Assembly: GCA_009781955.1 (NCBI GenBank)
Contig: WQUT01000037.1
Location: forward strand, 1-12,359
From: Pseudomonadota bacterium
Lineage (GTDB): Bacteria > Pseudomonadota > Alphaproteobacteria > Rs-D84
Length of the DNA: 12,359 bases
Direction: 5' to 3'
Shown here: positions 1,399 to 12,359 of the stretch, piece after piece
How the letters are laid out: every line of letters starts with the position of its first letter
Numbering within the stretch: position 1 is the stretch's first letter
Notes under the pieces: model-generated
Database searches by the model: none
What the model was told of the DNA's origin: nothing
Seen by the model: the letters and a program-made list of their open reading frames with translations, nothing else
Position numbers and translations under genes: made by a program

Positions 1399-2133
1399 AT
1401 GCAGAATTTGCCCAGAATCTATCTGACCGAAAATCTTGCGGTCGGCAAAACTTTCCCCCTGCCGCCGGATCGGGGGCATTATCTGTCGCGCGTGATGAGG
1501 ACGGACAAATTTCTGGCTTTCGGTAATGGCGAAGAATTCCTCGCGGAACTGAAACAGGAAACAAATAAAAAAACTATTCATTATTCGCTTTTGGTTGTTC
1601 AATTAACCGGCCGCCCCGACCCATCGGGTAATATGACCCTTGCGTTCGCGCCCATAAAGCAGGCGCGGCTGGAAGAGATGCTAAACATGGCGACGCAATT
1701 GGGTGTCGCGGCTTTGCAGCCGGTAATCACCGACCGCACAGACGCGCGGAATATAAACTGGGAAAGAATCCGAAAAATAACGACCGAGGCGGCGGAGCAG
1801 TCCGGCCGCAACAGCATTCCAGAAATCCGCCCGCCGGTTAAATTCGGGGAATTTGTCGCAGATGCAAAAAATCTGGTTTTCGCGGACGAACGATTCGCGC
1901 ATGAAAAAATAAATGTAGGGGCAAATAATTACCGGGCCCCGACAAAATCGCAGATTTTGGTGGGTGGTTCTTTGCCCCTACAAGCCACTATTTTCATCGG
2001 GCCCGAAGGCGGATTTTCGTCCGCCGAATTCGCGGCGCTGGATGCGGCCAAGGCGGTTGGAATAAGTTTGGGGAAAACAATTCTGCGCGCTGAAACCGCG
2101 GCCGCTGTCGCGATAGCATTAGTGACAAAGTGA
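1399..2133 (+). CDS. rsmE: 16S rRNA (uracil1498-N3)-methyltransferase RsmE
   Basis: 244-aa ORF. The N-terminus PRIYL...L..G....L......HYLSRVMR and the C-terminal IFIGPEGGFSSAEF ... LGKTILRAETAAAVAIALV are the RsmE/PF04452 knot signature. The last codons (GTG ACA AAG TGA, 2122-2133) lie inside the octamer-armed repeat. Confidence 0.85.
   Translation: MQNLPRIYLTENLAVGKTFPLPPDRGHYLSRVMRTDKFLAFGNGEEFLAELKQETNKKTIHYSLLVVQLTGRPDPSGNMTLAFAPIKQARLEEMLNMATQLGVAALQPVITDRTDARNINWERIRKITTEAAEQSGRNSIPEIRPPVKFGEFVADAKNLVFADERFAHEKINVGANNYRAPTKSQILVGGSLPLQATIFIGPEGGFSSAEFAALDAAKAVGISLGKTILRAETAAAVAIALVTK
1914..1982. repeat. 69-bp (23-codon) palindromic element lying in frame inside rsmE
   Basis: A 12-bp perfect inverted repeat, TGTAGGGGCAAA (1914-1925) / TTTGCCCCTACA (1971-1982), encloses an inner hairpin CAAAATC-GCA-GATTTTG (1943-1959). 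It is translated as NVGANNYRAPTKSQILVGGSLPLQ immediately upstream of the conserved GPEGG motif. Confidence 0.7.
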
Positions 2134-2218
2134 CAGAATTAATGTGTCGGCTTTGCCGACAAGCAATATCCGCGCACAGCGCGGCTACCATCATTTTGTC
2201 ACTCTGTCACTTTGTCAC
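2122..2218. repeat. Octamer-armed palindromic element, copy 1 (MITE/REP-like, non-coding)
   Basis: Left arm GTGACAAA GTGACAGA (2122-2137). Right arm TTTGTCAC TCTGTCAC TTTGTCAC (2195-2218). The outer 16 bp are perfectly complementary. The core carries two hairpins, GTCGGC-TTT-GCCGAC (2146-2160) and CCGCGC-ACA-GCGCGG (2170-2184). The core is nearly identical to that of copy 3 at 11475-11531. Confidence 0.85.
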
Positions 2219-2223
2219 TAAAA

Positions 2224-4354: not shown

Positions 4355-7171
4355 TCAATCGCCAAACAGCGACGGCTGGGGCTTTTTCGCCGGCGAAGAC
4401 ACCTTCGGACTTACCCCTGCCCTTGCGGCAGGGGTCGCGGTGGTGCTTTCTTGCATACCGCGGGGGATGGGTTCATTAATCAAAGCATCCTTGTCATTTT
4501 GCTGATTTAATTTATCTGACCCACCCCCCGCGCTTCGCGCGACCCCCGCCGCAAGGGCGGGGGTTACGGCTTCGCCGTTTTGGTTTTCCAGCCCCAGCAA
4601 TACCTCTTCCGCGCGCGCGACGACGGAATCCGGCATTCCGGCCATTTTCGCCACATGGATTCCATAGCTGCTGGCGGCCGCGCCCGGAACGATTTTATGC
4701 AAAAATATGATTTCGTTGTTGTGTTCCGCAACAGATACCGTCAGGCATTTGACATGGGCGAGAGCCGAAACCCGAGAACCGACAGCCGAAATTCGGTTTT
4801 CGGTTTTCGGCTCTCGGGTTTCGGCCAACACGGTCAGCTCGTGATAATGCGTTGCGAACAAAGTGCGCGGATGCATCGCGTCCAGGAATTCCAGCACCGC
4901 CTGGGCAATGCTCATCCCGTCATAGGTCGCGGTGCCGCGGCCGATTTCATCAAAAATAATGAATGATTTTTCAGTCGCGCGGTTCAGGATATTCGCGGTT
5001 TCCGTCATTTCCACCATGAACGTGGATTGTCCGGCGGCCAGATTATCCGACGCGCCGACGCGCGAAAACAACTGGTCGCAGATGCCGATGGTCGCCGAAT
5101 CGGCGGGCACAAAAGATCCCAGATGCGCCAATACGACAATCAGGGCGTTCTGGCGCAGATACGTTGATTTGCCCGCCATATTGGGCCCCGTAATCAGCGC
5201 TATGCACTGATTACGGGGCCCAGAGTTAAGAGTTGAGAGTGGAGAGTGGAGATTGGCCCCGCCTAAACTCTCGGCTCTTAACTCTCCGCTCTCTTGCGAA
5301 CACGCAGCGTTCGCAAGCAAGCAATCATTTTTAACAAACCGGCCGCCTTGGTCCCGCAGAATCTTTTCCACAACCGGATGCCGTCCGCCGCGGACATCAA
5401 AACCGCAATCATCCGTAATTTTTGGCCGCGCCCATCCGTATTCGTCCGCGCATTCGGCCAGAGCCGACCACACGTCCAGATCGGCCAGCATATCCGCCGC
5501 GAATAATAACGAAGGCGCCGCGTCTTTTACCATTTCAATCAGGCGCGCGATTATTTCGGCCTCTATGCCCGCCGCGCGATCGGCGGCCCCCCTTACCTCG
5601 TTATCCAGCTCTATCAGGCGCGCGGTGGTGAACCGGACGTTCCCGGTCATGGTCTGGCGGTGGATGAATCCGGAATCCGGCGCAAAGAGCTTGTCCGCCT
5701 GCTTGCTCGGCACCTCTATATGATACCCCAATATATTGTTGTATTTGATTTTCAGCGTCGCGACGCCGGTCGCTTTTACATAATCCGCCTGCATGCCCGC
5801 GATAACCTCTCGCGCGCCGTGGGCCAGGGCGTTCATGTTGTCCAGGCCGCTGTCATAGCGGGCGCGTATCACGCGTCCGTCGCGGAAAAACGCCGGCAAT
5901 TCGTCGGCCAGGGCCGCGCGCAATTCCGTCGCCAGGCCGTTATTGGTTTCAATCGCCGCAAACCGCGCGGCCAATTCGGCATCCAGCCGCGCGCCGATCG
6001 CCTTGACATGCGGCAGCGCGGACGCGAATTCCGCAACGGCGCGCAAATCCCGCGGGGTCCCGCGATTCGCGGCCAAGCGCGCGCACGCGCGGCCGATGTC
6101 CGGCACTTTGTCCAGCGTCGCGCGCGCGGCGTGCGCTATGTCGGAATTCAGCAGCAGGTGCCCGATATGCTCTTGCCTCTTTCGGATTTCATCGGCGTCG
6201 CCGGACAGCTCGCGCAAATACGCCCGCAGGCGCCGCGCGCCGGCGGCCGTCCGCGTTTTATCAATAACTTCCAACAGCGTGGCGCCATTCGGCTGCATGC
6301 CGGCGTCAATTTCCAGCGAACGCCACGTCGCCGCATCGCACAGCAGGCGCGCCCCCGCGCCCAGCCGATAAGGCGCGCGGAAAGAGAGCTTTGCGTCCCG
6401 CTGCGTCTGATCCAGATACCCGGCCAGCATTTGAATCGCCGCATTGATTTGCGTGGATTCAATCCCGAAAATCTCGCGCGCTATGTCCGTGATATTTCCG
6501 CGCTCGTAAATCCGGTCGTATACGGGCGCGGTCTTGAACGCGGCGCGCAACTTTCGGATATCCGGCGCTTCGGCCGCCGATTCGGGGTATATTACCTCTG
6601 CCGGATTCAGACGCGTCAATTCGTCCAGCACATTATCCGACAATTCGCCGACAAAGAATTCGCCGGTTGATATGTCGCATCCGGCAATGTCGTAAACCGA
6701 AAGACGAAAACCGAGAGACGATTCGGTTCTCGGCCCCCGGGTTTCGGTTTTCGGGAACAACGCCACCAGAAAATTCGCCTTCTTGGGCGACAGCAGATTT
6801 TCGTCGGTCAGGGTTCCGGCGGTCAGAACGCGTATTATCTTGCGCTCTATCTGTTTGTGCCCGCGTTGTTTCGCCTCTTCCGGGCTTTCCATCTGTTCGG
6901 CGATCGCGGCGGAAAATCCCATTTTCACCAGGCGCGACAAATAATTCTCGGCCGCATGCCACGGAATCCCGCACATGGGAATATCGCCGCCCGCGCCGTC
7001 GGTGCCGCGCTTGGTCAGAACCAGGTCCAGCGCGCGCGACACGATTTTTGCGTCTTCAAAGAAAGATTCGTAAAAATCGCCCAAACGGAACAGCAGCACG
7101 GCGTCCGGACATTCGGCCTTCATATCCAGATACTGTTTCATCACCGGCGATAATTCTGATTTCTTTGCCAT
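4355..7171 (-). CDS. mutS: DNA mismatch repair protein MutS (carrying several in-frame palindromic insertions)
   Basis: The ORF track gives 4355-7189 with a GTG start. I prefer ATG 7171-7169 (MAKKSELSPVMKQYLDMKAECPDAVLLFRLGDFYESFFEDA, the canonical MutS N-terminus). Walker A GPNMAGKS is encoded at 5165-5188, followed by STFMVEMTE, FDEIGRGTATYDG and THYHELT. Confidence 0.95.
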   Translation of the reverse strand: MAKKSELSPVMKQYLDMKAECPDAVLLFRLGDFYESFFEDAKIVSRALDLVLTKRGTDGAGGDIPMCGIPWHAAENYLSRLVKMGFSAAIAEQMESPEEAKQRGHKQIERKIIRVLTAGTLTDENLLSPKKANFLVALFPKTETRGPRTESSLGFRLSVYDIAGCDISTGEFFVGELSDNVLDELTRLNPAEVIYPESAAEAPDIRKLRAAFKTAPVYDRIYERGNITDIAREIFGIESTQINAAIQMLAGYLDQTQRDAKLSFRAPYRLGAGARLLCDAATWRSLEIDAGMQPNGATLLEVIDKTRTAAGARRLRAYLRELSGDADEIRKRQEHIGHLLLNSDIAHAARATLDKVPDIGRACARLAANRGTPRDLRAVAEFASALPHVKAIGARLDAELAARFAAIETNNGLATELRAALADELPAFFRDGRVIRARYDSGLDNMNALAHGAREVIAGMQADYVKATGVATLKIKYNNILGYHIEVPSKQADKLFAPDSGFIHRQTMTGNVRFTTARLIELDNEVRGAADRAAGIEAEIIARLIEMVKDAAPSLLFAADMLADLDVWSALAECADEYGWARPKITDDCGFDVRGGRHPVVEKILRDQGGRFVKNDCLLANAACSQESGELRAESLGGANLHSPLSTLNSGPRNQCIALITGPNMAGKSTYLRQNALIVVLAHLGSFVPADSATIGICDQLFSRVGASDNLAAGQSTFMVEMTETANILNRATEKSFIIFDEIGRGTATYDGMSIAQAVLEFLDAMHPRTLFATHYHELTVLAETREPKTENRISAVGSRVSALAHVKCLTVSVAEHNNEIIFLHKIVPGAAASSYGIHVAKMAGMPDSVVARAEEVLLGLENQNGEAVTPALAAGVARSAGGGSDKLNQQNDKDALINEPIPRGMQESTTATPAARAGVSPKVSSPAKKPQPSLFGD
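4364..4378 (-). other. Putative beta-clamp-binding pentapeptide QPSLF at the MutS C-terminus
   Basis: The last residues are ...KKPQPSLFGD*. QPSLF resembles the QL[SD]LF-type clamp-binding motif known at the C-terminal end of MutS proteins (for example QMSLL in E. coli). Confidence 0.45.
4414..4563. repeat. Pair of related 21-bp GC hairpins bracketing ~110 bp (about 36 codons) within the ~70-codon MutS C-terminal tail
   Basis: CCCCTGCC-CTTGC-GGCAGGGG (4414-4434) and CCCCCGCC-GCAAG-GGCGGGGG (4543-4563) are reverse complements of each other apart from one compensated stem base pair (T/A versus C/G). They are translated as TPAARAGV and TPALAAGV. Confidence 0.6.
4764..4825. repeat. Heptad-armed palindromic element (NCCGARA)4, in frame inside mutS, copy A
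   Basis: GCCGAAA CCCGAGA ACCGACA GCCGAAA TT CGGTTTT CGGTTTT CGGCTCT CGGGTTT CGGC. It is translated as ...TREPKTENRISAVGSRVSAL... between THYHELT and FLHK, where canonical MutS, as I recall it, is about 20 residues shorter. Confidence 0.8.
5183..5317. repeat. Compound palindromic insertion in frame inside mutS, directly upstream (protein sense) of the Walker A
   Basis: Three parts. (i) A perfect 15-bp inverted repeat GGGCCCCGTAATCAG (5183-5197) / CTGATTACGGGGCCC (5207-5221). (ii) A heptad palindrome GAGTTAA GAGTTGA GAGTGGA GAGTGGA ... AAACTCT CGGCTCT TAACTCT CCGCTCT (about 5222-5292). (iii) A hairpin CTTGCGAAC-N7-GTTCGCAAG (5293-5317). Translated as ANAACSQESGELRAESLGGANLHSPLSTLNSGPRNQCIA before LITGPNMAGKS. 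Confidence 0.8.
6696..6755. repeat. Heptad-armed palindromic element (NCCGARA)4, in frame inside mutS, copy B
   Basis: ACCGAAA GACGAAA ACCGAGA GACGA TT CGGTTCT CGGCCCC CGGGTTT CGGTTTT CGGG. It is translated as PKTETRGPRTESSLGFRLSV in the N-terminal mismatch-binding region, upstream of DISTGEF. Confidence 0.8.
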
Positions 7172-7196
7172 TTGTGATTTATATTCCACAATCTGA

Positions 7197-7357
7197 GACT
7201 ACCCCGGATTTCCATCGGCAACAAGTTGCCGGGAAATCCGACCCTTCTGAGAAGGGTAATTGCGCACTCATTTTGTTAAATTTTATGAGCGTCAAATGCC
7301 CTTCTCAGAAGGGCCGGAAAGCTTGGCAATTTATTGCCCTAGCTTTCCGGGGTAGTC
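7197..7357. repeat. 161-bp nested palindromic intergenic element (MITE-like) between the mutS start and the xseB stop
   Basis: Terminal inverted repeat GACTACCCCGGA (7197-7208) / TCCGGGGTAGTC (7346-7357). Internal hairpins are CGGATTTCC..GGAAATCCG around CGGCAAC-AA-GTTGCCG, CCCTTC-TGA-GAAGGG, GCCCTTC-TCA-GAAGGGC, CTCAT..ATGAG and CCGGAAAGC...GCTTTCCGG. Confidence 0.75.
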
Positions 7358-7362
7358 GTATT

Positions 7363-7617
7363 TTATTCAACCTTTAACTTTTCTATTTTCAGTTCCGCTT
7401 CTTTCAGCAATTGCTCGCAATACGCCTTTAACTTCATCCCCTGTTCATACGCGGCGACCGAATCGGACAGGGGCAGCGCGCCCGACTCCATCTTTTTCAC
7501 CAGTTCCTGCAACTGGGCCAGCGCCTGTTCAAAAGACAGATCGTTGGTCGCTGGTCGCTTGTCCTCCATAGCCTTGGCGGAGGAGGATTGGTCGTTGGCT
7601 TTGGTTTCTTTTTCCAT
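7363..7617 (-). CDS. xseB: Exodeoxyribonuclease VII small subunit
   Basis: LSFEQALAQLQELVKKMESGALPLSDSVAAYEQGMKLKAYCEQLLKEAELKIEKL is the XseB pattern. The ORF track extends to 7692. I prefer ATG 7617 (MEKETKAND...) because AAAGGA lies 9-10 nt upstream and the putative promoter sits at 7644-7672. ATG 7635 is an alternative start. Confidence 0.85.
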   Translation of the reverse strand: MEKETKANDQSSSAKAMEDKRPATNDLSFEQALAQLQELVKKMESGALPLSDSVAAYEQGMKLKAYCEQLLKEAELKIEKLKVE

Positions 7618-7643
7618 ATTTCGCATCCTTTTCATTTGGGAAA

Positions 7644-7672
7644 AGAATACTGTATAAAAAACGCTTTGGCAA
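7644..7672 (-). promoter_or_regulatory. Putative sigma70-type promoter for xseB
   Basis: The minus strand reads TTGCCA (7672-7667), a 17-nt spacer, then TATTCT (7649-7644). Confidence 0.4.
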
Positions 7673-7720
7673 TGGAAAAGGTATCCGTTCATAATTTTTA
7701 TACGAAACCTGCGGCATTTA

Positions 7721-7729
7721 TGATATAAT
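7721..7729 (+). promoter_or_regulatory. Putative extended -10 promoter (TGATATAAT) facing the secreted-protein cluster
   Basis: TGATATAAT is an exact TGnTATAAT match. It is followed by an A/U-rich imperfect hairpin at 7737-7766. No convincing -35 element is present. Confidence 0.4.
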
Positions 7730-7911
7730 TCTAGTGTCCAAATAAAACGGTCGTTTTTTTAGGACATTTTTCTTGCCCATATGAAAATCAAAAATCCCCA
7801 GAATTCCGCACATTTTTACATCCCTCTATTTTCTCGGCGGACGGGTAAAATAACCGACCGTTTATTTTCCCCAGCTTTTGCGGCGCAAAGCCTGTCCTCG
7901 CTTTTCTTTAT

Positions 7912-8220
7912 TTGTTTCTTATGCTGCCCTGCCCCACGGCGTATGCCGACCAGGATGGCGATAGCGATGCGGCCGCCGAAATCGCGCAAAAAACTGCATA
8001 CGCAACGCAGCTTTCGGCGGAAATACTGCAACTGGATTCAGAAATTATACGCTGCCGGAAAGCAAAAACCAACTGGACGGCGGCGACAGTTGTCGGTGGC
8101 ATCGGCACTGTCGCCACCGGCGCGGGGGCGATCGTGCAGCTGAACCAGATACAAAAGGCGAAAAAGGCCGGCAAAACGGAACAGCAACATGAAACGGTAG
8201 AGGCCGCAAAAACAGAATAA
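7912..8220 (+). CDS. Small coiled-coil protein with a Gly-zipper TM segment, paralog of 8390-8821; start codon unresolved, possibly decaying
   Basis: ORF track TTG start. The in-frame upstream extension from 7849 encodes a good signal peptide (..GAKPVLAFLYLFLMLPCPTAYA/DQDGD) but contains no ATG, GTG or TTG before 7912; only ATT at 7864. It shares CxK..TK..(W/F) ... ATGxGxxVxxN..K with the next gene. Confidence 0.45.
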   Translation: MFLMLPCPTAYADQDGDSDAAAEIAQKTAYATQLSAEILQLDSEIIRCRKAKTNWTAATVVGGIGTVATGAGAIVQLNQIQKAKKAGKTEQQHETVEAAKTE

Positions 8221-8228
8221 AAAACGCC

Positions 8229-8361
8229 CGTCATTCCGTTGCGGTGCCGGATGGCACCGACAACGGAATCCAGGTAAAAATAAGCCGCCGCGGCTTTGCC
8301 GCGACAACAAATTAACCTGGATTCCGGCGTTCGCGCGGTTCCGCGCGCCGCCGGAATGACG
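8229..8361. repeat. 133-bp nested palindromic intergenic element with CGTCATTCC termini
   Basis: CGTCATTCC (8229-8237) pairs with GGAATGACG (8353-8361), and GGAATCCAGGT (8265-8275) with ACCTGGATTCC (8315-8325). There are three internal GC hairpins: CCGTTGCGGTGCC-GGA-TGGCACCGACAACGG, CGCGGC-TTT-GCCGCG and ATTCCGGCG..CGCGCGG-TT-CCGCGCG..CGCCGGAAT. Confidence 0.75.
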
Positions 8362-8389
8362 ACTGTGCCCTAGGTAAAGTACCGAAGCG

Positions 8390-8821
8390 ATGAGAAAGTA
8401 TATTTTTTTGCTTTTTATATTCTCGCCCATCGTTGCGTTCGCAATGGACGATGATATGCAGTTACAGGCCTTGAACGACAGGATTGCAAAGATGGAGCAA
8501 GAGCGCGCCGTCAAAACCGCGCAGTTGCAGAAATGCGCAAAGGAAACCAAGGGATTCAAAATCGCGGGAATCACGACGCTGGCCGCGACCGGAATCGGAA
8601 TCGCGGTCAATATAAACCTGCACAACAAGCTGAACAAAATGTCAGGAGGAGACAGGAATGAAGAAAGCCATGCGTTGACATGCGAAGAGGAAAAGAGCTT
8701 ATTCTGCGACAAATCGTCCAAATCTTATAACAAGAATGCATGCCTTGCATACGAGGCATGCACATGCGGCAAGACTCCGCCGGACCAGTGTGACAATCCG
8801 GACTGCGATCCATGCATATAA
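8390..8821 (+). CDS. Secreted or membrane-anchored protein: signal peptide, coiled coil, Gly-zipper TM, Cys-rich tail (143 aa)
   Basis: MRKYIFLLFIFSPIVAFA/MDDD is a signal peptide. A heptad-like segment QLQALNDRIAKMEQERAVKTAQLQKC follows, then the hydrophobic IAGITTLAATGIGIAV, then a C-terminal tail with 8 Cys (CEEEKSLFC...CLAYEACTCGKTPPDQCDNPDCDPCI). I recognise no family. Confidence 0.65.
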   Translation: MRKYIFLLFIFSPIVAFAMDDDMQLQALNDRIAKMEQERAVKTAQLQKCAKETKGFKIAGITTLAATGIGIAVNINLHNKLNKMSGGDRNEESHALTCEEEKSLFCDKSSKSYNKNACLAYEACTCGKTPPDQCDNPDCDPCI

Positions 8822-8849
8822 CAAATCAACAAAACTAAAAGGGAAAGCC

Positions 8850-9416
8850 ATGAGAAAAATCATATTCGGCACACTGATCGCGATCATTTTCGTATACGGC
8901 GTTTACGCTATGCCGAACGCGGATGCCCGAAGGGCCGCGTGTGAAGCAGGCCCGGATACAACCTGGGTAGAAGCGGATAGCGCCTGCGTTAGTAATCAAT
9001 TAGATACATATTTTCAAAAAATTACAACCAGCGAAGAATGGGCAAAAAAACTGATTCAGTATTATCTGGACCACGAGGTAACCAACAGGCAAACCAAATT
9101 AGGAACCTGGCTTTGCGATGATTTTGTTTTTTCACATGACGACATGTTCAGCTATGTTACTTGCAAAAGCCGCTATGCCGCAGACTATAAATTCAGGTTT
9201 GGGCGAATTTATGATACAGATCACACCGGCGGGCGGATAGACGCGATCTGCAAAATGCTTGGCGGCACACTACGAGACGCCAAGAATGGCACGGGCTGGT
9301 GCCGGAACGGCGGATCAAGGGTTTGCGAAACCAAAATGTATTTCCGATGGAGCGAATGGGACATTGAAACATGGGAAGAAAACGAAACTGGCGCGACCGT
9401 GCTTTGCGCCAAATAA
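8850..9416 (+). CDS. Secreted Cys-containing protein of unknown function (188 aa)
   Basis: The ORF track gives 8736-9416. I take ATG 8850, preceded by AAAAGGGAAAGCC (SD-like). MRKIIFGTLIAIIFVYGVYA/MPNADA is a signal peptide. The mature part has 8 Cys and is Trp/Tyr/Asp-rich. I recognise no family. Confidence 0.65.
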   Translation: MRKIIFGTLIAIIFVYGVYAMPNADARRAACEAGPDTTWVEADSACVSNQLDTYFQKITTSEEWAKKLIQYYLDHEVTNRQTKLGTWLCDDFVFSHDDMFSYVTCKSRYAADYKFRFGRIYDTDHTGGRIDAICKMLGGTLRDAKNGTGWCRNGGSRVCETKMYFRWSEWDIETWEENETGATVLCAK

Positions 9417-9436
9417 AAACTAAAAGTTTTTTATCA

Positions 9437-9467
9437 GTCAGGCCGTTCCGGCCCTCGCCGGAATGAC
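9437..9467. repeat. Partial (right-end) copy of the CGTCATTCC-type element
   Basis: The 12-mer CGCCGGAATGAC at 9456-9467 is identical to 8349-8360. It is preceded by a GGCCG-TTC-CGGCC hairpin. Confidence 0.5.
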
Positions 9468-9469
9468 AA

Positions 9470-9493
9470 GCGGCGGCGATTGCTCGCCGCCGC
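9470..9493. terminator. GC-rich hairpin between convergent genes (candidate bidirectional terminator)
   Basis: GCGGCGGCGA-TTGC-TCGCCGCCGC: a 10-bp stem with a 4-nt loop. It is followed on the plus strand by CCATTTGGTTTTGG (T-rich). It lies 24 nt beyond the mreB stop on the minus strand. Confidence 0.5.
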
Positions 9494-9516
9494 CCATTTG
9501 GTTTTGGACGGAAAAA

Positions 9517-10626
<1,110 letters not shown>

Positions 10627-10628
10627 TT

Positions 10629-10658
10629 ATTTTACGACTATAAAACGCGAAATTGCAA
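10629..10658 (-). promoter_or_regulatory. Putative sigma70-type promoter for mreB
   Basis: The minus strand reads TTGCAA (10658-10653), an 18-nt spacer, then TAAAAT (10634-10629). Confidence 0.4.
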
Positions 10659-10675
10659 AAATCAAGCGGGGATAT

Positions 10676-10728
10676 CGGGATTTAAGATTTAAGATTTACG
10701 GATTTAAGATTTGCGGATTTAAGATTTG
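10676..10728 (+). repeat. Direct-repeat array, 3 x ~15 nt CGGATTTAAGATTTG (built from GATTTAA heptads)
   Basis: CGGGATTTAAGATTT (10676-10690), an extra AAGATTTA, CGGATTTAAGATTTG (10699-10713) and CGGATTTAAGATTTG (10714-10728). The last unit overlaps a TTGACA hexamer. Confidence 0.8.
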
Positions 10729-10754
10729 ACAGCTATGATTTTGCAATCTAAACT
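10726..10754 (+). promoter_or_regulatory. Putative sigma70-type promoter for rnpA
   Basis: TTGACA (10726-10731), a 17-nt spacer, then TAAACT (10749-10754). The predicted start site falls at about 10761, next to ATG 10762. Confidence 0.4.
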
Positions 10755-11103
10755 GAATTTTATGAGAAACACGATAAAAAAGCATGCCGATTTCGCCGAG
10801 CTGGAAAATTCCCGCACATTCAGGTGCGAGCTGTTCATCGCGCGCGCCCATCCGACCAAATTTCCGAATGATGCGCGATACGGCCTGATTGTTCCAAAGC
10901 GGGCGTTCAAACTGGCGACGCGGCGAAACCGCATAAAACGGCGCCTGCGCGCGTGGATACGGCTGAACGAGGGGCTCTTGCTGCCTGACCTGGACTATGT
11001 CTTCATCGCGCGGTCCGGGGTTTCCGACGCGGATCACCAGAAAGGCATGTTGTGGATGCAAAGGGCGTTAAAGGAAATAAAAAGTGACAAAGTGACAGAG
11101 TGA
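10735..11103 (+). CDS. rnpA: Ribonuclease P protein component
   Basis: ...IKKHADFAELENSRTF...GLIVPKRAFKLATRRNRIKRRLRAWIRL contains the RnpA RNR motif (xxRNRxKRxxR). The start is ambiguous: TTG 10726 in the ORF track, ATG 10735, or ATG 10762. The last 7 codons and the stop (10083-11103 region, specifically 11083-11103, SDKVTE*) are encoded by the left arm of repeat copy 2. Confidence 0.85.
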   Translation: MILQSKLNFMRNTIKKHADFAELENSRTFRCELFIARAHPTKFPNDARYGLIVPKRAFKLATRRNRIKRRLRAWIRLNEGLLLPDLDYVFIARSGVSDADHQKGMLWMQRALKEIKSDKVTE

Positions 11104-11199
11104 CAGAGTTGTGGTCACGGCTTTCGCCGTGGGTCAATAATGATTTTGCCCATCGGCATCAGCCGACGCATAAATTCTGTCACTCTGTCACTTTGTCAC
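11084..11199. repeat. Octamer-armed palindromic element, copy 2
   Basis: Left arm GTGACAAA GTGACAGA GTGACAGA (11084-11107) is the exact reverse complement of right arm TCTGTCAC TCTGTCAC TTTGTCAC (11176-11199), a perfect 24-bp TIR. The core contains the hairpin CACGGC-TTTC-GCCGTG. Confidence 0.9.
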
Positions 11200-11206
11200 T
11201 AAAACT

Positions 11207-11422
11207 ATGAAACCGATCGCCATATTTTTAATCAAAATCTATCAAGCCGCCATATCGCCCGTATTCGGCGGGCGGGCGGCGTGCCGGTTTATACCGACTT
11301 GTTCCGAATACGCAAAGCAGGCGATAGAGAAACACGGCGTTTTGCGCGGCTTCTGCCTGGCCGCGCGCCGCATCGGCCGATGCCGCCCCGGCGGGGGATT
11401 CGGGTATGACCCCGTCCCGTGA
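11207..11422 (+). CDS. yidD: Membrane protein insertion efficiency factor YidD
   Basis: 71 aa: IKIYQAAISPVFGGRAACRFIPTCSEYAKQAIEKHGVLRGFCLAARRIGRCRPGGGFGYDPVP. This is the YidD/PF01809 signature (CRFxPTCSxY ... RIxRCxP...GxDPVP). It lies downstream of rnpA, as usual. Confidence 0.92.
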   Translation: MKPIAIFLIKIYQAAISPVFGGRAACRFIPTCSEYAKQAIEKHGVLRGFCLAARRIGRCRPGGGFGYDPVP

Positions 11423-11442
11423 CTGCCTTACAGCTATTGTAA

Positions 11443-11563
11443 GTGACATAGTGACAGAGTGACAAAGTGACATAGTTAATGTGTCGGCTTTGCCGACAAA
11501 TAAAATCCGCGCATAACGCGGCTACCACCACTTTGTCACTATGTCACTATGTCACTATGTCAT
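11443..11563. repeat. Octamer-armed palindromic element, copy 3
   Basis: Left arm GTGACATA GTGACAGA GTGACAAA GTGACATA (11443-11474). Right arm TTTGTCAC TATGTCAC TATGTCAC TATGTCAT (11532-11563). The core at 11475-11531 is about 85-90% identical to the copy 1 core by eye, with the same GTCGGC-TTT-GCCGAC and CCGCGC-N3-GCGCGG hairpins. Confidence 0.9.
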
Positions 11564-11581
11564 TGCACGCCGCAGGCGTGC

Positions 11582-11610
11582 TTGACTTCCCATTCTTTTG
11601 GGGGTATTAT
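11582..11610 (+). promoter_or_regulatory. Putative sigma70-type promoter for accBC
   Basis: TTGACT (11582-11587), a 17-nt spacer, then TATTAT (11605-11610). It is followed by SD GAAGGAA (11632-11638) and ATG 11643. A hairpin GCACGCC-GCA-GGCGTGC (11565-11581) lies just upstream. Confidence 0.5.
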
Positions 11611-11642
11611 GAGCGGTGCACCCAAAATAAAGAAGGAACATA

Positions 11643-12116
11643 ATGTCATTACATTCCACGGTCGCCGATATGTCAAAGATGATGGACGAGATGGGCCTGA
11701 CCGAATTTACAATCCAGCAAAGTTTCTTGTTCGGGGTCTGGAAAAACGAAATTCATTTGTCTAAACAGCAACCAATGCTGGCCGCCGCGACGGCATTCGC
11801 CGCGCCCGCGCCGGCGGCGCCATTGGCAAAGCAAGAGCCTGCCTCTGCCAAGGCCGCAGCTGACAAGCCGGCCGCCGCGACCGGGACCGTCCTCCGCTCT
11901 CCTATGGTTGGAATCGCGTATCTGTCGCCCGAACCCGGCGCGCGCCCGTTCACCCAGATAGGGGCGCGGGTCAAGGCGGGCGAAACGCTGTGCCTGATAG
12001 AGGCCATGAAAACATTCAACCCGGTCAAGGCCGAATCCGCCGGCGTTGTCAAAGAAATACTCATCCAAGACGGCCAGGCGGTTGAATACGACACGCCGCT
12101 GGTGGTGATTGAATAA
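11643..12116 (+). CDS. accB: Acetyl-CoA carboxylase biotin carboxyl carrier protein (BCCP)
   Basis: 157 aa with an Ala/Pro-rich linker, then SPMVGIAYLSPEPGARPF...GETLCLIEAMKTFNPVKAESAGVVKEILIQDGQAVEYDTPLVVIE, containing the EAMK biotinylation motif. Confidence 0.93.
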   Translation: MSLHSTVADMSKMMDEMGLTEFTIQQSFLFGVWKNEIHLSKQQPMLAAATAFAAPAPAAPLAKQEPASAKAAADKPAAATGTVLRSPMVGIAYLSPEPGARPFTQIGARVKAGETLCLIEAMKTFNPVKAESAGVVKEILIQDGQAVEYDTPLVVIE

Positions 12117-12124
12117 AAGGAGTA

Positions 12125-12235
12125 GTGACAGAGTGACAAAGTGACATCGCAAAACCACAAGCGGTTTTGCTAGCGACAAAGTTGTATTGCACAACACTTT
12201 AACTCTGTCACTCTGTCACTCTGTCACTTTGTCAC
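12125..12235. repeat. Octamer-armed palindromic element, copy 4
   Basis: Left arm GTGACAGA GTGACAAA GTGACATC (12125-12148). Right arm TCTGTCAC x3 plus TTTGTCAC (12204-12235), then a degenerate TTTGTAAA. The core carries hairpins GCAAAACC-N6-GGTTTTGC and GTTGT-ATTGC-ACAAC. The arms have unequal unit numbers (3 versus 4). Confidence 0.9.
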
Positions 12236-12245
12236 TTTGTAAACT

Positions 12246-12359
12246 ATGCCACAAATACGTAAAGTTCTTATTGCCAACCGCGGGGAAATCGCGCTGCGCA
12301 TCATTCGCGCCTGTCGCGATATGGGAATCCGCACCGTTGCCGTCTATTCCACCGCCGAC
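12246..12359 (+). CDS. accC: Acetyl-CoA carboxylase biotin carboxylase subunit, N-terminal 38 codons (runs off the window)
   Basis: My translation from ATG 12246 is [38 protein letters not shown], the canonical AccC N-terminus ([18 protein letters not shown]...VAVxSxAD). It lies downstream of accB. Confidence 0.9.

Follow-up and report, generated by a model that had tools for sequence, protein, structure and literature searches.

Several described systems bear on the locus reported here. In genes 38 and 25 of bacteriophage T4, a hairpin cuts the spacing between the Shine-Dalgarno (SD) motif and the AUG from 22 to 5 nt and from 27 to 11 nt, respectively; in the case of gene 25 the site is intercistronic (26-25), with phylogenetic conservation of the arrangement (PMC3014915). 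On the thrS mRNA of Escherichia coli, the single-stranded segments bound by the 30S subunit are non-contiguous, and the subunit makes room for a long hairpin that stays folded (PMC3936740). Palindromes resembling MITEs (miniature transposable elements with inverted repeats), i.e. Correia/NEMIS, ERIC, Chunjie and REP/BIME, are short, dispersed, inverted-repeat-armed elements found between co-transcribed genes, where they are transcribed into hairpins, are possible RNase III substrates and leave the operon unbroken (PMC10969869). Tandem 7-nt intergenic units occur sporadically across phyla, namely the cyanobacterial short tandemly repeated repetitive (STRR) sequences, Mrazek's long simple sequence repeats (SSRs) and the TAACTGA repeats of Beggiatoaceae, and the TAACTGA repeats often end a few nt before SD-less starts (PMC4679880). 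Here we analyse the accB|accC junction of contig WQUT01000037.1 (12,359 nt, forward strand, taken whole and hereafter called the window), which comes from an uncultured alphaproteobacterium and in which a palindromic repeat element with tandem-octamer arms separates an SD-like AAGGAG from the accC start codon.

The genes accB and accC encode two subunits of acetyl-CoA carboxylase, an enzyme essential for fatty-acid synthesis, so that anything lying between them must permit AccC production. An earlier note on this DNA, made from the sequence alone, had placed AAGGAG directly behind the accB stop codon and the element between this motif and the accC ATG; the order and the codon positions were confirmed (Table 1), and only the start of the element had to be moved, from 12125 to 12124. 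It had further proposed that pairing of the arms in the mRNA would bridge the gap and make AAGGAG part of a structure-bridged (split) ribosome-binding site (RBS). Judged from sequence comparison, initiation of accC from such a site is in our view the likeliest reading, evenly poised between true and false: the comparative data favour it, and its functional part is what we infer from them.

The AAGGAG motif binds the anti-SD of 16S rRNA with a duplex free energy (dG) of -8.2 kcal/mol, equalled in 1.5% of the same-length stretches across the window. Motifs of the AAAGGA/AAGGAG type stand at -7 to -13 in about half of 23 genes of this genome, the rest having none, which makes AAGGAG a real SD type of this organism. 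The same-genome DNA covered amounts to ~30 kb, i.e. the window, L001 (an independent ENA assembly, 100% identical over window 4419-12359) and L197, which adds 8.6 kb upstream of the window. The motif ends 123 nt from the accC ATG in linear distance and, as had been stated earlier, accC has no SD of its own: anti-SD complementarity is absent from the 22 nt 5' of the ATG (duplex dG +0.9), and the leader 12237-12245 taken alone gives +0.8. This ATG is the sole possible accC start, because an in-frame TAA precedes it at 12240-12242 and the N-terminus it opens (starting MPQI) agrees with AccC of the relatives; an alternative start was ruled out on these two grounds. The upstream gene product, AccB, is 100% identical to MCL2331327.1; the assignment to the Alphaproteobacteria agrees with MutS and with the order of the genes.

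No sigma-70-like promoter site and no terminator-like site were found on the + strand within 12117-12245, so that accC must be read from the accBC transcript. An internal promoter was rejected: TAAACT (12240-12245) lacks a -35 hexamer at a distance of 16-18 nt, and transcription from it would begin past the ATG. An intrinsic terminator, i.e. a G+C-rich stem with a U tract, was likewise rejected, the stem being followed by CUUUGUAAACU. A mini open reading frame (ORF) driven by AAGGAG was also discarded: the GTG at 12125 lies only 2 nt away, the ORF has 3 codons and L199, one of the relatives described below, has no counterpart.

Folding of 12100-12260 as RNA, which the earlier note had suggested as a check, gave a stable hairpin of -61.1 kcal/mol, against -36.5 +/- 3.9 for shuffled sequences (z = -6.4; 0/200 shuffles equal), and this hairpin was retained across four folding contexts. 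Its arm helix comprises ~23 bp with one mismatch, and the core adds two small hairpins, at 12149-12170 (GCAAAACC...GGTTTTGC) and 12181-12195 (GTTGT...ACAAC). The arms are paired in this predicted fold, but the distance across the helix base is not the single value of ~12 nt expected: the arms are unequal (3 units versus 4-5), and three slip registers, 8 nt apart, follow, with predictions that vary with the sequence context folded. The inner register (G12125-C12227) leaves ~18 nt between SD and AUG and has a probability of 0.40-0.99 depending on context; the middle one (G12125-C12235) leaves ~10 nt (0.06-0.20) and the outer one (G12125-C12244) ~2 nt (0.03-0.49). The inner register pairs AAAGGA weakly with UCACUUU (12232-12238) and leaves the AUG and its 17-nt leader (12229-12245) mostly unpaired, with a high unpaired probability for 12237-12245. 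In the outer register GGAGUAGU (12119-12126) pairs with ACUAUGCC (12243-12250) at 7/8 positions, so that the SD-like motif and the AUG would mask each other.

The accB|accC junction was then compared in 18 members of the clade (AccB 51-93% identical to that of the window), the relatives coming partly from the AccB matches listed by a metagenome scan, among which neither the source contig nor L002 figures; they are designated below by locus handles (L002 and so on). A hairpin with tandem-unit arms was present in nine of the 18 and a tight junction of 0-14 nt in nine; the 65-nt junction of L122, which folds like shuffled sequences (z = -0.7), was left out of both counts. Only a few lineages are represented, their independence is incomplete, and AccB similarity serves as a crude tree. 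The nine hairpins are built from at least five unrelated unit sequences, and all seven that were tested against shuffles were significant (z -3.6 to -8.2). The same layout, i.e. stop, SD-like motif, long hairpin, 2-16 nt and ATG, was found at eight of the nine, with arm sequences that vary by lineage. No SD stands between hairpin and ATG in any of the nine, the 3' gaps (2-16 nt) all having dG >= 0, and counterparts of AAGGAG occupy its place on the 5' side: AAGAGGA in L002 and L200, AGGAGG in L199 and AAGGGAG in L204. Against all same-length stretches of each locus, the 5' motif is enriched with a Fisher p of 3.6e-6 for all nine junctions, and of 4.8e-4 when each of five lineages is represented by one junction, the worst case included.

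The window, L002, L200 and L204 form one lineage with related units (AAGTGACA and AAGTGAAA differ by one base). Within it, TAA(AA)AGAGGA or AAGGAG has been kept at AccB identities down to 67% (L200), the arms have changed in concert, and the 3' gaps have diverged or been replaced.

The tight junctions (for example GAATAA-GTT-ATG and GAATAA-AA-ATG) all lack AAGGAG, and most have an anti-SD dG near 0; a weak or distant match (-4.5 to -5.8 kcal/mol) occurs in at most three of the nine, none of them placed as a working SD. The earlier note had read AAGGAG as belonging to a normal accB-accC junction into which the element was inserted, and had held that its absence at the accB stop of element-less relatives would count against this. 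Such an absence is what these nine relatives display, which are distant (AccB identities to the window of only 51-68%), and this part of the earlier note was not supported. Two reconstructions of the insertion of copy 4 lead to different ancestors: a GTA duplication yields TAAAAGGAGTAAACTATG, with a perfect SD and a 6-nt spacer, and a TAAA duplication yields TAAACTATG, a 3-nt junction without SD like those of the hairpin-less relatives. Tight and hairpin-bearing lineages interleave by AccB similarity, which implies several gains or losses.

The tight junctions also bring in a different explanation, according to which the hairpin would be a tolerated selfish or neutral insertion, AAGGAG would be incidental or a relic, and accC would start without an SD, by means of the A/U-rich leader exposed in the inner register (12229-12245), of termination-reinitiation after accB, or of both, as in relatives with 0-3-nt junctions. 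Without a functional SD at the tight junctions, accC translation in this clade needs none in principle; about half of the genes of this genome have no SD either; L121 carries the hairpin and no SD-like motif; and the AUG with its 17-nt leader is mostly unpaired in the inner register. Moreover, a hairpin placed in a 0-3-nt junction must abut both stop and start, so that their proximity to it needs no selection. Against this explanation, an SD-like motif stands at the 5' base of eight of nine hairpin junctions and none is SD-placed in the tight ones (p ~5e-4), the motif is retained in the window, L002, L200 and L204 amid turnover all around, and a ribosome that reinitiates would even then face a hairpin of 50-60 kcal/mol in its path. 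Being the sole rival that predicts no role for AAGGAG, it is the one that the comparative enrichment argues against, and we consider it somewhat unlikely.

As a separate observation, two independent assemblies, L003 (3466-3633) and L004 (3466-3615), the closest relative of L117, both stop 150-170 nt past accB, and accC does not come next, which hints at an insertion or an unresolved repeat at this junction.

Two further junctions of this genome resemble accB|accC. At rnpA|yidD, AAGGA lies ~10 nt 5' of element copy 2, and the yidD ATG (11207), 6 nt past the 3' arm, has no SD. When copy 2 and one TAAAA are removed in silico, the reading frame ends ...KEIKL-TGA and overlaps the yidD ATG, an ATGA overlap also present in L003 and L205, and AAGGA comes to stand 10 nt before this ATG; the restored spacing points to an ancestral SD split by the element. 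At hyp285|rlmN (L197 2880-2971, ~5.7 kb upstream of window position 1), AAGGGGG precedes the stop by 5 nt and is followed by a (GATTTAA)n hairpin, with the rlmN ATG flush with the 3' arm and no SD past the hairpin; across the base of that hairpin, the rlmN ATG is paired with the stop TGA. The junction lptD|hyp285 is a contrasting case, with an SD 3' of the hairpin.

The split-RBS mechanism that we propose would run as follows. In the accBC mRNA the arms would pair and loop out ~110 nt, bringing the accB stop, the adjoining AAGGAG and the accC AUG side by side at the helix base; AAGGAG would then pair with the anti-SD of the 16S rRNA, the last 3' unit and a few A/U-rich bases serving as the SD-AUG spacer, and accC would start from this bridged site. 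Owing to the unequal arms, the helix could slip in 8-nt steps and set the spacing to ~2, 10 or 18 nt. A ribosome terminating on accB would cover AAGGAG and melt the lowest base pairs, so that bridged initiation is probably combined with coupling to accB translation and its termination. Three features expected of a split RBS are present, i.e. a distant SD-like motif without a nearer SD, a stable intervening fold and an arrangement conserved among relatives. With 5-13 nt taken as the functional range, the folded SD-AUG spacing in relatives is 8 nt (L199), 7 nt (L200) and ~10 nt (L117), which is about one repeat unit and a few bases.

Several points weigh against this mechanism. The absence of a functional SD from the tight-junction relatives, the hairpin of L121 without SD-like motif and the SD-less half of the genes have been given above. 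The layout (eight of nine) and the lack of a 3'-side SD favour what the earlier note had proposed; the folds fit it less well, AAGGAG being partly paired in the partition function (unpaired probability 0.05-0.7), the AUG being hidden in the outer register by the GGAGUAGU/ACUAUGCC pairing, and the SD-AUG spacing in the likeliest register being 18 nt, a poor distance for an SD. The looped-out part (~110 nt) is branched, and in size the element exceeds the T4 precedents about sixfold. The enrichment of SD-like motifs at the 5' base could stem partly from SDs that predate the hairpins and are not in current use. Finally, RNase III would be likely to cleave an arm helix of this kind (~23 bp, one mismatch).

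The last point underlies an explanation in which the hairpin would act in RNA processing or stability: an RNase III cut would yield two messages, an accB mRNA protected by a stem and an accC mRNA whose leader is short and SD-less, thereby setting the AccB:AccC ratio. Besides the length of the arm helix, it can call on the Correia elements of Neisseria, whose transcripts are cut at the inverted repeats by RNase III (PMC10969869). Copies 1 (between convergent genes) and 3 (after yidD) of the element are also located at the 3' ends of genes, a place in which a stem would shield the mRNA. Such processing would leave the SD-like motif at the 5' base unexplained, and cleavage would disconnect that motif from accC unless the two halves stayed paired; to our mind this is unlikely.

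The outer register suggests yet another role, that of a negative element, in which the GGAGUAGU/ACUAUGCC pairing would mask the accC start until a ribosome terminating on accB melts the helix base, in the manner of classical coupling through unmasking, AAGGAG acting as an anti-start. The extent of this pairing (7/8 positions) and its context-dependent probability (0.03-0.49) are in keeping with it, as are the stop and start codons paired across the helix base at hyp285|rlmN and, in L199, an AUAA paired with UUAU of the start region. Yet three of the four folding contexts put the outer register in the minority, the minimum-free-energy (MFE) structures of L117, L121 and L200 have an unpaired AUG, and AGGAGG (L199) and AAGAGGA (L002, L200) fit the anti-SD better than their own start regions. 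We hold masking of this kind to be very unlikely.

Table 1. Features of the accB|accC junction, element copies of the window and hairpin-bearing accB|accC junctions of the clade. Positions refer to the window; z, hairpin stability against shuffled sequences; dG, anti-SD duplex of the stop codon and 5' gap (kcal/mol).
Feature	Positions	Strand	Repeat unit	z	dG	Remarks
accB, biotin carboxyl carrier protein, 157 aa	11643-12116	+				TAA 12114-12116; ORF list; Pfam PF00364
AAGGAG, SD-like motif	12117-12122	+				directly 3' of the accB stop, 1 nt 5' of the 5' arm
5' arm of copy 4, three tandem octamers	12124-12147	+	AGTGACAN-type: AGTGACAG AGTGACAA AGTGACAT			repeat search, periodicity; paired in MFE fold
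Core of copy 4, 57 nt, unique	12148-12204	+				MFE structure; two small internal hairpins
3' arm of copy 4, four octamers	12205-12236	+	NTGTCACT-type: CTGTCACT x3, TTGTCACT			repeat search
Degenerate fifth unit (12237-12244) plus T	12237-12245	+	TTGTAAAC			A/U-rich SD-less leader adjoining ATG; in-frame TAA 12240-12242
accC start, biotin carboxylase	12246-12359	+				ATG 12246-12248; gene runs off the window, full 448-aa gene seen in L001
Element copy 1	2121-2220	+				between convergent rsmE and rpsO; supplies rsmE stop; repeat search and ORFs
Element copy 2	11083-11200	+				rnpA|yidD junction; supplies rnpA stop (TGA 11101-11103)
Element copy 3	11442-11562	+				between yidD and promoter-like site of accB; L002 ortholog has AATGACAN units
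Element copy 4	12124-12244	+				between accB and accC
Junction, window			AGTGACAN	-6.4	-8.2	
Junction, L002			ATGGAAAA/TGGTAAA	-8.0	-7.6	
Junction, L200			AAGTGAAA	-3.6	-6.3	
Junction, L204			degenerate		-8.4	folded without shuffles
Junction, L199			TAGCAGT	-8.2	-11.6	
Junction, L203			AGGAACA		-5.6	folded without shuffles
Junction, L117			AACTAAC/T	-5.0	-4.2	
Junction, L121			CGTTTAG...CGTAAAT	-7.4	+1.0	
Junction, L123			CGTAAAT	-6.6	-5.0	

The element at accB|accC is one of four copies of 100-122 nt within the 12 kb window, each having a 5'-side array (AGTGACAN)n and a 3'-side array (NTGTCACT)n (Table 1). Copies 1 and 3, their cores included, match at 89% of positions over 100 nt, and copies 2 and 4 have other cores. 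The last codons and stops of two genes come from the element, copy 1 providing those of rsmE (...LVTK*, 2121-2133) and copy 2 those of rnpA (...SDKVTE*, 11083-11103), so that two protein C-termini have been rewritten by elements. Several traits of MITEs were found, i.e. inverted terminal repeats, a length below 300 bp, absence of coding capacity and several dispersed copies; candidate target-site duplications are TAAAA on both sides of copy 2 and TAAA or GTA for copy 4, none being seen for copy 1, and no insertion sequence (IS) with these ends was seen in the ~30 kb of the source genome (window, L001 and L197). The elements also agree with tandem arrays, defined as at least 3 head-to-tail units of 5-11 nt, mostly intergenic, copy 4 having 3 and 4-5 octamers. 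Further 7-nt arrays were found at window 10679-10742 and in L197, L002, L117, L121, L123, L199, L200 and L203, (GATTTAA)n forming arrays and hairpins at 10679-10742 and in L197.

Comparison with L002, a related species which is 84% identical to the window in nucleotide sequence and differs at 22-27% of third codon positions, gave a view of how these elements evolve. L002 has hairpins at the same three junctions as the window (rnpA|yidD, yidD|accB and accB|accC), with other units: AGTGACAN corresponds to AATGACAN, AAAGTGAC to AAAGAAC or AGAGGAC, and AGTGACAA to AATGGTAA. In the orthologous hairpins (window 11442-11562 and L002 2453-2526; window 11083-11200 and L002 2125-2216), every unit has changed in both arms, and arm complementarity has been kept, as in AGTGACA/TGTCACT versus AATGACA/TGTCATT. 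Such unit-wide changes indicate that the arms evolve in concert, unlike those of a classical MITE. It is well supported that copy 4 is a palindromic repeat element with tandem-octamer arms, belonging to a fast-evolving class of hairpins with 7-8-nt units; that this class colonises intergenic and intercistronic junctions of an uncultured alphaproteobacterial clade; and that an accB|accC element was already carried by the ancestor which the window organism shares with L002.

Neither Rfam nor the papers searched supplied a name for this class. Rfam 15 gave no match at the gathering score, and a known RNA family was set aside, since only eukaryotic miRNA precursor hairpins, far below threshold, appeared at E <= 1. 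In the literature searched for octamer or inverted tandem-repeat hairpins the class was not found, the nearest papers being those on TAACTGA, STRR and long SSRs.

A scan of genome contigs with GTGACANAGTGACANAGTGACA, made of three tandem GTGACANA units, indicated a wide distribution. Among the matches listed, which do not include the source metagenome-assembled genome (MAG), more than 110 stretches (L007-L116) contain three GTGACANA units, against ~1 expected by chance; their hosts span many phyla, among them Bacteroidota, Planctomycetota, Acidobacteriota, Candidate Phyla Radiation (CPR) bacteria and several Proteobacteria, and many of the arrays form inverted pairs in the gap from a stop codon to the following ATG. 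Neighbouring arrays of very different 7-8-mers were observed in L106, L014, L015 and L029.

These observations can be assembled into a broader proposal, which we offer with low expectations: tandem-arm hairpins might be a self-renewing class present in many phyla, distinct from classical transposons, and domesticated at tight operon junctions into a slippage-adjustable, termination-coupled split RBS akin to ribosome shunting. Slippage and intrastrand templating would homogenise the arms, both of which would change in concert. Mutation would turn the outermost 5' unit into an SD, and its 3' counterpart at the outer edge, with 7-8 nt the ideal length for SD spacing, would take over as spacer; when a unit is gained or lost, or the register slips by 8 nt, accC translation would be tuned or switched on and off. 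The SD region resembles an outermost repeat unit, with two changes, in L199, L200 and L002, the pairs being TTAGGAGG versus TTAGCAGT, AAGAGGA versus AAGTGAA, and GAGGATGG versus GAAAATGG.

Other repeats of the same region were recorded. Direct (GATTTAA)n arrays in window 10671-10742 reach the rnpA start, and at the orthologous spot of L002 (1692-1752) their place is taken by an inverted (ATTGCTG)n/(CAGCAAT)n hairpin. The mutS ORF (4355-7189, - strand) contains in-frame (CCGAAAA)n/(TTTTCGG)n hairpins at 4764-4825 and 6691-6753, the protein having at the latter site a 14-aa insertion (TRGPRTESSLGFRL) relative to MutS of L003 (63% identical); they resemble the Rickettsia palindromic elements. Between mutS and xseB, an inverted repeat at 7217-7338 has 46-nt arms, 78% complementary, that are not built from tandem units. 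Between xseB and mreB, which are adjacent in L002 and L003, the window holds ~1.8 kb (7700-9500) with three small ORFs (7921-8220, 8456-8821 and 8850-9416) and, at 8229-8361, a 50-nt inverted repeat (CGTCATTCCG...CGGAATGACG).

If the split RBS at accB|accC is real, such sites would be no curiosity of phage T4 and would provide operons with a general route to survive, then exploit, the palindromic repeats that invade them. Starts of this kind would be misjudged by gene-finding programs and RBS calculators that consider only the 20 nt upstream. The recurrence of one layout in several lineages, each time with unrelated units, would amount to a natural series of compensatory mutations. Attention is also drawn to the widespread inverted arrays of 7-8-nt tandem units, whose arms evolve in concert and which occur even in frame within genes such as mutS.

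Compared with known systems, the junction comes close to T4 genes 38 and 25 in that the SD is too distant in linear sequence and an intervening hairpin would restore the spacing. The T4 hairpins, however, reduce the spacing by only 16-17 nt and are unique and sequence-conserved, whereas ~110 nt are looped out at accB|accC by a dispersed repeat whose stem consists of tandem 7-8-nt units, can slip by 8 nt and has changed its sequence fully between relatives; the function we infer here. In thrS, SD and AUG are contiguous and split from an upstream standby segment, and the hairpin is the operator bound by ThrRS, not a repeat. The leader of the 35S RNA of cauliflower mosaic virus (CaMV) offers another geometry like that of accB stop, hairpin and accC AUG: a short ORF ends a few nt 5' of a long stable hairpin, and the ribosome resumes just 3' of it. 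The CaMV mechanism belongs to eukaryotic scanning, and we know of no established bacterial counterpart of this shunting. As to the repeats themselves, the terminal inverted repeats of known MITEs are unique and stem from IS ends, and their target-site duplications are defined; the present arms, by contrast, are tandem 7-8-nt arrays, the cores differ between copies, and orthologs differ by concerted changes that run through all units of both arms. The STRR, long SSR and TAACTGA repeats are described as direct arrays, with only one indirect (inverted) TAACTGA repeat reported, whereas at accB|accC two inverted arrays form a long hairpin with an SD-like motif on its far side.

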